Positions 37,172-44,667 of a stretch of DNA of 64,000 bases are shown in pieces (the first letter of the stretch is position 1; every line of letters starts with the position of its first letter). Under the pieces are notes generated by a model. The model ran no database searches, had not been told where the DNA came from, and worked only from the letters and a program-made list of their open reading frames with translations. Source of the DNA: Alphaproteobacteria bacterium (lineage in GTDB: Bacteria > Pseudomonadota > Alphaproteobacteria > UBA7887). A program made the translations under genes and the position numbers. The stretch lies in contig CBDCGL010000011.1 in NCBI GenBank assembly GCA_965216755.1, positions 3,296,001 to 3,360,000 on the forward strand. Reading direction: 5' to 3'.

Positions 37172-37672
37172 GTGAAGCGCTGGTTTGTGGTTCATACGCG
37201 CGCCCATGGCGAACAGCGCGCCTACGAAAACCTCTGCCGCCAAGGTTTCGACGCTTGGTTGCCGCGCTACCGCAAGAAGCGCCGCCACGCAGGTCGCCTG
37301 GAAACTGTTTTGCGACCTCTCTTCCCCAGATATCTGTTTGTGTCCGTGGATTTGGCGGCCGAACGTTGGCGCGCCATCCTATCGACCTTTGGGGTCGCCG
37401 GGTTGGTGGGCGCCGTAGATGGCCCAGAGCCGGTGCCCGACGGCGTTGTCAACGCCTTGCGTGCGCGCGCCGACGCCGATGGCTGTTTCACGTTGCATCG
37501 GGCGGCGACGATGAAACCGGGCCAGCCGGTGCGTATCGGCGCCGGCCCCTTTCAAGACATCGAAGGGATTTTTCAAGCCCCTAGCGACGCCGAGCGGGTG
37601 GTTATTCTGCTGCAACTGATGGGGCGCACGGTTTCGATCACCGTGCCGGCATCGGATATCGACGCGCTCTGA
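37172..37672 (+). CDS. rfaH: Specialised NusG paralog (RfaH-like antiterminator)
   Basis: NGN domain WFVVHT...RAYENLCRQG...PLFPRYLFV...STFGV, colinear with E. coli RfaH as I recall it; KOW motif PGQPVRIGAGPFQDIEGIF. Sits in a glycan locus, not in secE-nusG-rplK context. Confidence 0.85.
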   Translation: MKRWFVVHTRAHGEQRAYENLCRQGFDAWLPRYRKKRRHAGRLETVLRPLFPRYLFVSVDLAAERWRAILSTFGVAGLVGAVDGPEPVPDGVVNALRARADADGCFTLHRAATMKPGQPVRIGAGPFQDIEGIFQAPSDAERVVILLQLMGRTVSITVPASDIDAL

Positions 37673-37682
37673 TGTTTCGGTG

Positions 37683-37788
37683 TTTCGGCATTTCGGTGAC
37701 AGTTTACTAAATACACCATATTCAGCGTATTCTCGGCAGGCACTACAGCTTGTGGTGTATTTAGTAAACTGTCACCGAAATGCCGAAA
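37683..37788. repeat. 36-bp perfect inverted repeat with 34-nt spacer (REP-doublet/MITE-like)
   Basis: TTTCGGCATTTCGGTGACAGTTTACTAAATACACCA (37683-37718) and its exact reverse complement (37753-37788), between convergent rfaH-like and cysQ genes. Confidence 0.9.
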
Positions 37789-37790
37789 TA

Positions 37791-38564
37791 TCAGGCGCCG
37801 CGGGCGATGAAAAAGCCGTTGCGGAAATCCGTCTTGCCGTAAAGAAACGGTTCGTCGTCTGGCGTACGTACGCTGCCGCCTGCGGCCAACAATACCGCAT
37901 GACCGGCCGCGGTGTCCCATTCCATGGTTGGTCCGAAACGAGGATATAGATCGGCCTCGCCCAGGGCGACCACACAGAATTTGTAGGACGAGCCGGCCTG
38001 GTGCAGACCGGCGACACGAACGGATTTGAGCCAGGCTTCGGTTTCGGCGCTGAAATGGGAGCGACTGGCGACCACCGTCGCCCCATCCGCCGGGGCGGCC
38101 CGAACATGTATGGGTTCGATCGGGCCGTCGCCCTGCCGGCGAAATGCCTGACCGGGCGTATAGCCCCAGACCAAAACATCTTTGGCCGGCAGCTGCACGA
38201 CCCCCAGAACCGGCAGGCTGTTTTCGATCAACGCGATGTTCACCGTGAATTCGTCGCGGTTCTTGATGAACTCCTTGGTGCCGTCCAGCGGGTCGACCAG
38301 CCAAAACAAATCATTGTCCGGAATGCCGGCGGCCACCGACTCGGTACTTTCCTCAGACACGATCGGGATATCCGGGGTCAAGGCCCGCAGGCCGTCGACG
38401 ATGACCCGGTTAGCGGCCAGATCCGCCTCGGTCACCGGCGAGCGGTCATCCTTGGTCTCGACGGTGATGCCACGCGCGCGCACGGCCAGGATTTCGCGTC
38501 CGGCGCGGCGCGCGATATCGCAAATGGGCGGCGCCAACGCCGCCAGATCAATGGTATCTGTCAT
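37791..38564 (-). CDS. cysQ: 3'(2'),5'-bisphosphate nucleotidase (PAP phosphatase)
   Basis: Motifs [45 protein letters not shown]. Confidence 0.95.
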
Positions 38565-40462
38565 ACCGTGTACTGAAACCGCTGGTCGATATACGTCAAG
38601 ATTTCACGGGCGCAGTCATCGACCGACCGCGCGGCCGTGTCGACGACCAAATCCGGCGTCTCGGGCAATTCATAAGGTGCACTGACGCCGGTGAACTCGC
38701 TGATTTCGCCCTTGCGCGCGCGCTTGTACAGGCCTTTGGGGTCACGCGCCTCACAGGTTGCCAAATCAGCCTTGATATAGACTTCATGAAAACCACCCTC
38801 CAAAGACAGCCGGTCGGTGGCTTCGCGGGCACGGTGGCGGTCGGCGCGATAGGGCGAAATAAACGCCGTCAGAACGATCATGCCGGCATCCGCGAACAAG
38901 GCGGCAGCTTCGCCAACCCGGCGAATATTCTCGGCGCGATCTTCCGGCGAAAAGCCGAGATTGGCGTTCAGGCCCATCCGGACATTATCGCCGTCCAGCA
39001 CATAGACATGGTAGCCGCGGGCGAACATCAAGCGCTCGACCGCGCGCGCCAGGGTCGATTTGCCGGCGCCGGACAGGCCGGTGAACCACACCACGCCGCC
39101 GCCATGGCCGTTCCGCTTGCTTCGCGCGTCCTCGTCGATCGTGCCGCGTTCTTCATAGACATTGGTCGACTTGACCGTGATCAACGAGCGCTGATCCGGA
39201 TAGCCTTCCATGCTGACAATGCCGCCGCCGGCGATCTCGTAACCGTCGACCAAGACAAAGCGTCCGGTGCGCGGATTGCGGGCATATTCATCCAAAGCGA
39301 GCATCGATCGCGCTCGCAGCACGACTTCGCCGACGGTGTTTTGCTCCATGCGGTCGGCGGCGACATGGTCGAGGGATTCGGAATCGATCGCATGTTCAAT
39401 CGACTGCACGGTGACCGCCGTTTCGATGGTGTTGAGCTTGAGCTTGTATTGGTTGCCCGGCGCCAGCGCCCGCTCGCCCAGCCAAAACACACGCGCTCGA
39501 AACACGTTTGACTCAACCGGCGGGCGGTCGATATGGCTGGCAATTTCGCCACGCTCGACAAACAGCTGCTCGTCCAGCGTCACGCCGACCGATTGGCCGG
39601 CGCGCACTTCGATCGGTGGGTCGGCGTGCCAGGCCTCAATCGAGCGGACCCGCGCGGTCTTGTTCGACGGCGAAAACAACAAAGTATCGCCGACGCGCAC
39701 AATGCCACTTTCGATACGGCCCGCGAAAATGCGCCGTTCGTCGAATTTGTAGACGTCTTGGACGGCAAATCGCAGCGGCAGATCGGTCGGTGGCGGCAGT
39801 GGCTCGAAGCCGTCCAACGCCTCGAGCAGGCCCGGGCCCTCGTACCACGGCGTGCGTTCGGAATTGACGACGATATTGTCGCCTTCCCGGGCCGACACCG
39901 GTAAAACATGTCGCGGTGTCACGCCCAGTTCGCTCAAATAAGCACAGAATTCCTTCTCGACTTGCGCGAAACGGCCGGCGTCATAATCGATCCGGTCGAT
40001 CTTGTTGATCACCAGGATCACCTGCGTGATGCCCAAAAGGTGCAGCAGGTAACCATGTCGGCGCGACTGCTCGCGCACGCCTTCTTCGGCGTCGATCAAC
40101 AACACCGCGGCGTCGGCGGCCGCGGCGCCGGTGACCATGTTGCGCAGGAATTCTTTGTGGCCGGGCGCGTCGATGATGACATAGTCGCGCAAGGCACTGC
40201 GAAACCAGATGTGGGCGGTATCTATGGTCACGCCCTGATCGCGTTCACCCTGCAAGGCATCGGTCAGAAACGCCCATTCGAAAGGCATGCCGCGGCGTCG
40301 ACACATCTCTTGTATGGCCTCGAACCGACCCTCGGGCAAACTGCCGGTGTCGTGAAATAACCGTCCAACCAAAGTCGATTTGCCGTGGTCGACATGGCCG
40401 ACAATGACGATCCGCAATGGATCGCCCAACGGCGCCACGGGGTGTGTTTTGCGCGCTGCCAT
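38561..40462 (-). CDS. cysNC: Bifunctional sulfate adenylyltransferase subunit 1 / adenylyl-sulfate kinase
   Basis: GTPase motifs [21 protein letters not shown] kinase [26 protein letters not shown]. Confidence 0.95.
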
Positions 40463-40468
40463 GGCGTT

Positions 40469-43421: not shown

Positions 43422-43439
43422 TTCGGCCACCGCGGCGCA

Positions 43440-44378
43440 CTATTCCGTGGCGATCATGTCGCGATAGGTTTGGTCGAGCCGTTCAAATAGCTCGTCGCAC
43501 ATTTGTTGAATGCGTGGATCGCGTGCCGCGAACGGGCTTTTGCGCACCGATGTGGCGAAGATCGACGACAGGAATCGTGGTGACAGCTTGCAACCGATCG
43601 CTTCAAAAATGCGCGCGAAACTGGTTTCTGGTTGGGCGACCAGATCCTCGTATTTGACCAGTAACACGCGCGGATTGCTGTCCAGCGCTTGGGCGAAATA
43701 GAACTGATTGCGCAAATACCAAAACACCGCCGCGGCGTCTTCGGCGGGCATATCGTCGGCATATAATTCCGAGACGCGCGCGATCAGCGCCGGTGTCAAC
43801 CGTTCCGCGCGCCAGCCGAGCTTGGGCCACGCGCCGTCGCGGATCCATCGCAGAACGTCTTTTTGATGTTCGCCCCAATAGCGCACCGCCGAATTCGCCA
43901 CATCGCCGTAATGGCGAAAAATCCAGATAGCGACGGCGCGCGAATCCAGTTCCAAGATCCGATCCGCCGCTTGGGAATTCATGATCGGCTTAAACGCGAT
44001 GGTCGGCGCATGGCTGTGCGCGATCAGACCCTTAATGGTGTCCGCATCGCGCAGCAGTCCGTATTTCAAGGCCGCGTTGGTGCCTTCCGGATAAACCCAA
44101 ATCTCCGGCGATTGATCCAAGATCTCGCCCAGCATTGTGGTGCCTGATCGTTGGCAACCCAGAATGAAGACGGGTGTTTTCGGTTGGTTGGCCCGATAGC
44201 GCAGGCGTTGCCACAGATATTTGCGCGCCAATTTCAGGCGCGTGGCGGCCGCGCGCCAAGCCCGCCCCATGGTCATCGGGTCAGGTTCCGGGCCCTGAAT
44301 GCGCAAATCATAGTTGCCGAATTCAGATTGCGGGCGCGTCTCGTGTCTGTCGTCCGAATCCGAGACCTTGATGTTCAT
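43440..44378 (-). CDS. PAPS-dependent sulfotransferase
   Basis: 5'-PSB loop FILGCQRSGTTML, 3'-PB motif IFRHYGDVANS, VKYEDLV. Start uncertain (44450, 44378 or further downstream). Confidence 0.85.
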   Translation of the reverse strand: MNIKVSDSDDRHETRPQSEFGNYDLRIQGPEPDPMTMGRAWRAAATRLKLARKYLWQRLRYRANQPKTPVFILGCQRSGTTMLGEILDQSPEIWVYPEGTNAALKYGLLRDADTIKGLIAHSHAPTIAFKPIMNSQAADRILELDSRAVAIWIFRHYGDVANSAVRYWGEHQKDVLRWIRDGAWPKLGWRAERLTPALIARVSELYADDMPAEDAAAVFWYLRNQFYFAQALDSNPRVLLVKYEDLVAQPETSFARIFEAIGCKLSPRFLSSIFATSVRKSPFAARDPRIQQMCDELFERLDQTYRDMIATE

Positions 44379-44522
44379 GGTCGGGACGTTTTTTGGGATC
44401 CGCTGTTTGGTGCGGCGAAGGGCGAAGTTGGTCCAGAATATAGAGGCCACACCGGTGAAGACAACGCCGCTTTGCGGGCGCCGAGTCGGACGCGCGCGAG
44501 CTTTTGTTTGAAGCTTGACCTG

Positions 44523-44565
44523 GCGTTCAAATTATGAACACCTTTCGCGTTCATAATGTGAACGC
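44523..44565. promoter_or_regulatory. Two tandem palindromic operator sites GTTCA-N5-TGAAC
   Basis: GCGTTCAAATTATGAAC (44523-44539) and GCGTTCATAATGTGAACGC (44547-44565), 24-bp period, just 3' of TTGACC (44515-44520). Confidence 0.7.
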
Positions 44566-44610
44566 ATTGCCGCGCCCCGGCGCGGCAGGGTTTGCCTCAG
44601 ACGCTCTAAC

Positions 44611-44646
44611 CTGGTGAAGCCTTTCACCCGGAATGGCGGTAGCGTG
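44611..44646 (+). promoter_or_regulatory. JUMPStart-like leader: hairpin plus ops element
   Basis: GGTGAA-GCCT-TTCACC hairpin (44613-44628), then GGCGGTAGCGTG (44635-44646) on the sense strand, 21 nt before the first ATG of the operon. Confidence 0.75.
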
Positions 44647-44667
44647 CCCCGCGGCCGTCAATTGTTC

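Follow-up and report, generated by a model that had tools for sequence, protein, structure and literature searches.

RfaH of Escherichia coli and its ops element are the textbook case of a transcription factor whose loading is directed by a DNA signal on the non-template strand. According to the passages of Wang et al. (2020) available to us, RfaH from E. coli is the sole factor of its kind with a known recruitment mode; the same passages place 18% of rfaH genes in Alphaproteobacteria and let ops contacts and autoinhibition arise late and together. In this study, we analyzed a window of 64,000 nucleotides from the genome of an alphaproteobacterium, comprising positions 3296001–3360000 of contig 11 (host genome labelled G000; coordinates below are those of the window). 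In front of a long array of glycan genes, the window holds a leader with a hairpin and an ops-type 12-mer at 44610–44646, which is probably a composite loading site for an RfaH-like factor encoded at 37172–37672.

With the E. coli system, the locus shares the identical 12-mer, a hairpin directly upstream of it, the position in the leader of long polysaccharide operons, a first gene poor in Shine-Dalgarno (SD) sequence, a factor that is a NusG paralog with RfaH as its best family, and, in the window, a trans layout. It differs in that the factor lacks E48 and R73, its C-terminal domain (CTD) is predicted to be beta, the host genome holds one site and not a regulon, the module includes a dedicated winged helix-turn-helix (wHTH) regulator with operators, and most alphaproteobacterial lineages place the site at most 100 nt after the factor gene. 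LoaP of Firmicutes is likewise a NusG paralog dedicated to long operons, and for LoaP-type paralogs a hairpin of the leader RNA serves as recognition signal; in contrast, an ops-type DNA core is also present here. The JUMPstart element (Rfam RF01707), which the consulted part of Weinberg et al. (2010) lists under gamma-Proteobacteria, also has a stem-loop directly before ops and upstream of polysaccharide genes, and model positions 1–38 align end to end. However, the hairpin sequence is different here: the model scores 12.9 bits (E 8.5), the gathering score being 35, and it gave no match at gathering level in 13 loci whose elements had been verified.

UpxY of Bacteroides and TaA of Myxococcus are each encoded at the head of the operon they serve, for a polysaccharide or a secondary metabolite, which resembles the canonical alphaproteobacterial layout described below; their recruitment modes are given as unknown in the passages of Wang et al. 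(2020), whereas the signal here is the ops core. Monomorphic RfaH homologues (bioRxiv 2026, PMC13015549, cited from its main-text passages) are similar in their predicted beta-barrel CTD, in the lack of E48-type autoinhibition, in the location of their genes near long lipopolysaccharide or glycan operons, and in that some E. coli ops-contact residues are missing. They are read there as ops-independent and recruited by proximity, whereas a strict ops core accompanies the clade analyzed here and the site in the window is separated from the gene by 7 kb and follows another promoter. Alphaproteobacteria are unmentioned in the main-text passages searched, the supplements lying outside that scope. 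In the literature on RfaH/ops or JUMPstart in Alphaproteobacteria, rhizobia included, no description of the element was found, although supplements may list such sites. The initial annotation, which had proposed a cognate factor/site pair from the sequence of the window, had known of no described recruitment signal in this lineage, in agreement with this negative result; the alphaproteobacterial rfaH genes themselves had already been published (Wang et al. 2020).

The hairpin-ops leader and its conservation

The following features of the window constitute the proposed factor/site pair; the 64 elements mentioned are those detected in a survey of paralog loci described below.

37172–37672, plus strand: RfaH-like NusG paralog of 166 amino acids with GTG start (Pfam NusG PF02357, 73.1 bits, E 2.7e-20)
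44610–44631, plus strand: conserved hairpin CC-u-GGUGAA / loop GCCU / UUCACC-c-GG, from minimum free energy (MFE) folding and covariation; the 3' arm holds CACCCGG
44632–44634, plus strand: spacer AAT between hairpin and ops (AAT, AAC, ACT or AGT in nearly all 64 elements)
44635–44646, plus strand: ops-type 12-mer GGCGGTAGCGTG, exact match, with the core GCGGTAGC kept in 63 of 64 elements
44668–45807, plus strand: first gene, a radical SAM/SPASM enzyme without SD sequence (Pfam Radical_SAM, SPASM)

The ops definition GGCGGTAGnnTG on the non-template (sense) strand is satisfied at 44635–44646. As annotated initially, the 12-mer GGCGGTAGCGTG follows a GGTGAA/TTCACC hairpin and lies 21 nt before ATG 44668, the distance to the hairpin being 3 nt. 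This ATG was also correctly described as having no evident SD sequence: the pairing energy with the anti-SD is −1.7 kcal/mol, weaker than the mean background of −2.66 ± 2.07 kcal/mol, while the other genes of the operon reach −2.4 to −7.2 kcal/mol. GTG 44614, which is in the same frame and located inside the 5' arm of the hairpin, has no SD sequence either (+0.4 kcal/mol).

Exact matches to GGCGGTAGCGTG in the window were limited to this one, and none of 100 dinucleotide shuffles contained any. With up to one mismatch there were two matches, a count that 14 of 100 shuffles reached (shuffle mean 0.70). The second match, GGCGGTAGCGAG at 40971–40982 on the plus strand, is located within and antisense to cysD, has no hairpin, was missed by the covariance model described below, and was judged to be chance. 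In the entire host genome (5,015,634 bases), GGCGGTAGCGTG occurs once at about 1.5 expected copies (own estimate from composition, GC 0.59). The degenerate pattern GGCGGTAGNNTG was not enriched there, with 8 sites compared to about 17 expected, and was rarer than a reversed-pattern control (8 versus 28), with a similar result in 40 relatives. The chance estimate of the initial annotation, about 0.02 hits per window, is therefore right for the window, but the count is not significant at the genome level, and a scan of the genome and its relatives, as suggested there, showed no genome-wide enrichment. For this reason, the case was built on position and conservation.

The core arms of the hairpin, GGTGAA (44613–44618) and TTCACC (44623–44628), can be extended to 44610–44631, and the hairpin is retained in the MFE fold of the entire leader. 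The same hairpin was obtained in the MFE folds of 17 of 18 orthologous leaders, with loops of 4 to 8 nt. For alignment, MAFFT was rejected because it left the 5' arms out of register; instead, a covariance model (R2) was seeded from three leaders, realigned with Infernal, and rebuilt from 37 leaders. Over these 37 leaders, 94.9% of the cells are paired, compared to at most 53% in controls with slid partners. Compensatory changes were found in three of nine pairs (19 cells versus 4.2 ± 1.8 in shuffles, with 0 of 500 shuffles as high); no more pairs covary because the sequence of the lower stem never varies. In the host genome, the model detected a single site (E 6.6e-14), the next best match having an E-value of 0.31.

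Orthologues of the paralog (E < 1e-30) were present in 16 of 41 related genomes, host included. These 41 genomes hold 19 exact 12-mer sites, of which 11 were inspected, excluding eight in paralog-free genomes. Six of the inspected sites (G000, G002, G013, G010, G012, and G037) consist of a hairpin ending in CACC[CT]G(G), a 3-nt spacer, and the 12-mer, while the other five resemble coding sequence. A 22-mer search added G006 and G003, both with a G12T change. The extended element is kept in eight genomes from six genera of the family and its neighbours, and it precedes differing first genes: in G010, G006, and G003 the wHTH regulator comes first, and at other loci this place is taken by epimerases, flippases, glycosyltransferases, or acyltransferases. 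The motif is thus conserved in orthologous leaders, and the unrelated first genes exclude coding constraint by translation from GTG 44614, an objection raised along with the initial annotation.

For a broader view, a profile search with the paralog in named genomes yielded 567 relatives, and the best 80 loci were analyzed. Almost all of these 80 are alphaproteobacterial, with Rhodospirillaceae, Bradyrhizobium, Nitrobacter, Pseudolabrys, Paramagnetospirillum, and Azospirillum among them. With the model R2, 64 of the 80 loci were positive for the element, which is always downstream of the paralog and on the same strand, at a distance of 4–99 nt from the paralog match in 58 loci and of 3.1–6.7 kb in six. 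The composite consists of a hairpin ending in CACCCG(G), 3–4 nt, and GCGGTAGC[G/A]TG. Since the commoner form reads CACCCGG-A[C/G]T-GCGGTAGC[G/A]TG, position 1 of ops is variable, while the GCGGTAGC core is invariant in 63 of 64 elements.

In a sample of one genome per family (151 genomes), 28 genomes have the paralog, and the 10 in which the element was detected (E ≤ 1e-5) all belong to these 28. The element hence occurred in 10 of 28 genomes with and 0 of 123 without the paralog (p about 1e-8, own hypergeometric estimate). Among the 41 relatives, nine of ten strong matches (E ≤ 1e-7) were in paralog-bearing genomes; weak matches were also present in G014, G019, and G031. A match in G021 (E 1e-5), located within long ORFs (open reading frames) and without CACCC, was treated as false. 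Every sampled operon downstream of the element is a glycan operon. The factor/site pair is widespread and not peculiar to the locus in the window. Because the 12-mer co-travels in evolution with the RfaH-like gene, it is very probably the loading site of this factor. The cognate pair of the initial annotation thereby gained support across Alphaproteobacteria, from the co-occurrence in families as well as from the physical linkage in 64 of 80 loci.

Two genomes have further arrangements. The complete genome G070 contains two strong elements (C1:1492754–1492795 and C1:2232974–2233015), 31 kb and 770 kb from the paralog at C1:2263998–2264483, and may represent a multi-site trans regulon. In G120, an element at C1:1050340–1050378 (plus strand) lies 0.8 kb from a paralog on the opposite strand (C1:1049038–1049517, minus strand) in a divergent layout.

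The RfaH-like factor

The initial annotation had noted a NusG paralog 7 kb from the motif, and the Pfam match of ORF 37172–37672 agrees with this. The gene starts 15 nt after a DUF218 gene (36395–37156), and cysQ converges on it from downstream. ORF 36395–37156 was also considered as a DNA-binding regulator and rejected, since it encodes the DUF218 protein. Apart from the factor, housekeeping NusG is the only NGN protein in the host genome. The family placement was based on NCBIfam scores, which rank RfaH (TIGR01955, 121.2 bits) before UpxY (82.8), NusG (53.2), and LoaP (45.9); the UpxY and LoaP scores are below the respective cut-offs of 100 and 125. RfaH was the top-scoring NCBIfam family for all 16 orthologues tested.

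Over residues 2–103, the alignment of the factor with E. coli RfaH is free of gaps. In E. coli RfaH, the base-contacting side chains are K10, H20, R23, and R73, and R23 and Q24 belong to the pocket for T6 (Zuber et al. 2018, passages available to us). The equivalents of R23, Q24, F130, and R138 are retained in the factor. Over the 80 loci, Q occupies position 24 throughout, R occurs once at position 73, and E is absent from position 48. AlphaFold2 predicted an NGN domain and a beta-barrel CTD with alignments of both 16 and 60 rows (predicted local distance difference test, pLDDT, of 83.7 and 83.3; CTD blocks 67–82). With Foldseek, full-length alignments were obtained to active RfaH (8phk, 6c6s) and NusG, whereas autoinhibited RfaH matched in the N-terminal domain only. 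The factor is thus predicted to be without autoinhibition of the E. coli type, that is, without the E48-R138 salt bridge and an alpha-helical free CTD.

An ops variant with a T6C change, GCGGCAGC, was observed in three loci: G023 (L166 2001–2044), G025 (L167 ~1223–1259), and L118 (10559–10599). The paralogs of G023 and G025 carry E23/R24 in place of R23/Q24, the residues of the T6 pocket in E. coli. A co-variation of protein and DNA, T6C with R23E/Q24R, was considered and dropped; the pattern is suggestive, yet it is no evidence because L118 has T6C with the ordinary R23/Q24.

Regulator, gene order and the glycan array

Upstream and downstream of the leader, further features were assigned.

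44515–44520, plus strand: TTGACC, putative −35 box (TTGAC conserved between or beside the palindromes in G010, G002, G013, G003, G006, and G023)
44538–44543, plus strand: ACACCT, weak putative −10 box, with a presumed transcription start near 44550
44525–44539, no strand: operator-like palindrome GTTCAAATTATGAAC in the promoter spacer (GTTCA-N5-TGAAC)
44549–44563, no strand: second operator-like palindrome GTTCATAATGTGAAC (GTTCA-N5-TGAAC)
45808–46434, plus strand: MarR/EPS-type winged-helix regulator (Pfam HTH_24; NCBIfam MarR_EPS TIGR04176, 63.8 bits, cut-off 88)
46431–64000, plus strand: co-directional glycan genes (Pfam/NCBIfam), running on past the window end

The promoter of the operon would thus be located near 44515–44550, the TTGAC box and the operators lying 70–120 nt upstream of ops. 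A sigma-70-like site (TTGTCT, 16 nt, TATATT) was observed at 44464–44437 on the minus strand, directed towards the divergent sulfotransferase gene 43440–44450. Exact copies of GTTCA-N5-TGAAC number eight in the host genome, two of them here, 24 bp apart. A homologue of the regulator adjoins the paralog or ops in 75 loci, and in 72 of these the 260 nt before the regulator gene contain the palindromes, usually two, compared to 0 of 75 coding control windows. The regulator encoded at 45808–46434 is therefore the likely binder of the palindromes. Together with these operators, the MarR/EPS-type regulator is the third partner that completes the module; the factor/site pair of the initial annotation was upheld, but this partner had been overlooked.

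In cis loci, the regulator gene is located directly upstream of the paralog, while in eight detached loci it starts 43–109 nt past the element. The canonical alphaproteobacterial order is operators and promoter, regulator, factor, hairpin-ops, and glycan genes. In the clade of the window, the order is operators and promoter, hairpin-ops, in part the radical SAM gene, regulator, and glycan genes, and the factor gene of the host lies 7 kb upstream behind the DUF218 gene, followed by a long inverted repeat and no ops. This clade thus has a rearranged, trans-type layout with a detached site directly behind the putative operator promoter. The inverted repeat is perfect over ~33–36 bp with arms ~30 nt apart (37673–37793), between the convergent rfaH-like gene and cysQ, where cis-type relatives hold the hairpin-ops element; it might act as a terminator in both directions or be left over from a small mobile element. 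In the close relative L090 (10001–11190), the regulator directly follows the paralog, a palindrome precedes the regulator by 58 nt, and the search within 10 kb yielded no element; this is another rearranged form of the module.

Downstream of the leader, many genes on the plus strand overlap by 4 nt at their stop and start codons up to the window end, and the one-strand arrangement described initially was reproduced by the ORF calls. Region 46431–64000 encodes PseC/DegT aminotransferases, an acetyltransferase, a CMP-transferase, two NeuB proteins, a NeuC-type epimerase, two HisH/HisF pairs, a methyltransferase, and others. Past the window, where gene calls were based on Pfam-supported ORFs, an ABC exporter, a sulfotransferase, a PseB-like dehydratase, a third NeuB, amidotransferases, and GT4 enzymes follow on the plus strand to coordinate ~90.6 kb, and the array therefore extends over ~46 kb. 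This array of 19 to 46 kb is a putative operon that may be transcribed as one unit. Three NeuB-family synthases (49872–50879, 57708–58922, and, past the window, ~73200–74237) are accompanied by the two HisH/HisF-like pairs and several DegT aminotransferases and CMP-transferases, and the array apparently encodes more than one pathway to nonulosonic acids.

The interval between paralog and leader contains cysQ, cysNC, cysD, a gene for a LegB-like dehydratase, and a sulfotransferase gene on the minus strand, and a weak GT8-like ORF on the plus strand. This cys/sulfotransferase block is what parts the factor gene from ops. The genes for synthesis and recycling of 3'-phosphoadenosine-5'-phosphosulfate (cysQ, cysNC, cysD; 37791–41266) and the sulfotransferase genes at 43440–44450 and ~66642–67613 flank or occupy the array, which suggests that the glycan is a sulfated nonulosonic-acid polymer.

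Proposed mechanism and alternative explanations

By analogy with E. coli RfaH, the module could operate as follows. Transcription would start near 44515–44550, gated by the operon's own MarR/EPS-type regulator via the two GTTCA-N5-TGAAC operators. The nascent RNA would fold into the conserved hairpin, and RNA polymerase, while transcribing GGCGGTAGCGTG, would pause near T 44645, just as it does at ops in E. coli. The N-terminal domain of the factor, with R23 and Q24 of the thymine-6 pocket kept, would then read the exposed non-template GCGGTAGC. With its end 14 nt behind the pause position, the hairpin may prolong the pause or itself be read. Once loaded, the factor would ride with the polymerase and exclude NusG/Rho-dependent termination as well as pausing along the array of 19 to 46 kb, and it may aid ribosome loading on the first gene, which has no SD sequence.

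Several observations weigh against the leader being a composite loading site for this factor. The protein is under both NCBIfam RfaH cut-offs (TIGR01955, 121.2 versus 144.5; NF006534, 92.5 versus 124), two to three of the four base-contacting side chains of E. coli RfaH are changed (K10R, H20N, R73F), and the autoinhibition residue E48 is replaced by R. The pair proposed initially was supported, but its protein scores below the RfaH cut-offs and has neither E48 nor R73. The genome-wide count of the 12-mer is at chance level, and a sigma-70 scan upstream of the leader found no promoter on the plus strand. In the hairpin, the lower stem is invariant in sequence and 10 of 37 sequences have an A.C mismatch at one pair; moreover, the 37-leader alignment was fitted to the structure of the model, which favours the hairpin statistics. 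No element was present in the available flank of 16 of the 80 loci, two of them with less than 100 nt of downstream flank, and 18 of the 28 paralog-bearing families had no element at E ≤ 1e-5. Conversely, G003 has a strong element (C181:19031–19071, E 5.5e-14) and no paralog was detected in its assembly, which is 92% complete in 260 contigs.

Part of this evidence would also fit a signal made of RNA, in which the hairpin is recognised by the paralog and the ops-like bases are only a consensus pause without DNA contact. The lower stem CCGGGTG/CACCCGG is conserved in sequence beyond what pairing demands, the spacing between hairpin and ops is fixed at 3–4 nt, the factor has lost R73 and the identity of K10 and H20, and the central ops bases are unneeded for pausing (Zuber et al. 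2018, passages available to us). Yet exactly the bases that are dispensable for pausing in E. coli, G4–G8, are the most invariant ones here, with GCGGTAGC in 63 of 64 elements, which argues for a specific reader of those bases, and the residues R23 and Q24 of the T6 pocket are retained. We therefore regard recognition of the hairpin alone as unlikely.

It is a good deal less probable that the element is a factor-independent pause or attenuator stabilised by the hairpin, or a site for housekeeping NusG, with the paralog acting elsewhere or free of a site, as proposed for monomorphic RfaH homologues. The beta-barrel CTD in both AlphaFold2 predictions and the absence of E48 would agree with this, since such homologues are read as ops-independent and recruited in cis in the main-text passages of PMC13015549 (bioRxiv 2026). 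However, the element was found only together with the paralog in the family sample and in 58 of 80 loci follows the paralog gene closely, a restriction that a general pause signal would lack.

The inverted repeat CCGGGTG...CACCCGG could in principle serve a dimeric protein, for example the wHTH regulator, as an operator in double-stranded DNA, given that the half-sites are conserved in sequence, but this is very improbable: the arms lie at widely differing distances, with loops of 4 to 8 nt in the MFE folds and long insertions in L127 and L098, which fits poorly to a dimer site of fixed spacing, and the GTTCA-N5-TGAAC palindromes, present in 72 of 75 loci, are the better candidate operator of this regulator. 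Finally, a chance motif or coding constraint with translation from GTG 44614 is so improbable as to be negligible, for although about one exact copy is expected per genome and this GTG is in frame, it lies in a hairpin arm without SD sequence and the element is conserved before unrelated first genes.

With the leader read as a loading site for the RfaH-like factor, a further step is possible, which we put forward tentatively and with considerable doubt. Reading of ops may predate RfaH-type autoinhibition and be independent of it, so that the alphaproteobacterial clade would represent an ops-dependent, non-metamorphic RfaH that is always beta and responds to a two-part signal of RNA hairpin and non-template GCGGTAGC; the lineage of the window would then have moved from cis to trans without gaining E48 or R73. 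If true, this would revise the published order of events (Wang et al. 2020).

The particular value of the window is its detached, trans-type layout combined with a factor without the autoinhibition features of E. coli RfaH. An unchanged ops core beside RfaH-like genes across Alphaproteobacteria shows the signal to be far older and wider than the enteric paradigm. As these genes are without the autoinhibition residue and their products are predicted to be non-switching, they offer an experimental handle on whether the reading of ops needs a fold switch. For the annotation of alphaproteobacterial glycan loci, the module provides a practical rule: wHTH regulator, operators, factor, and hairpin-ops.

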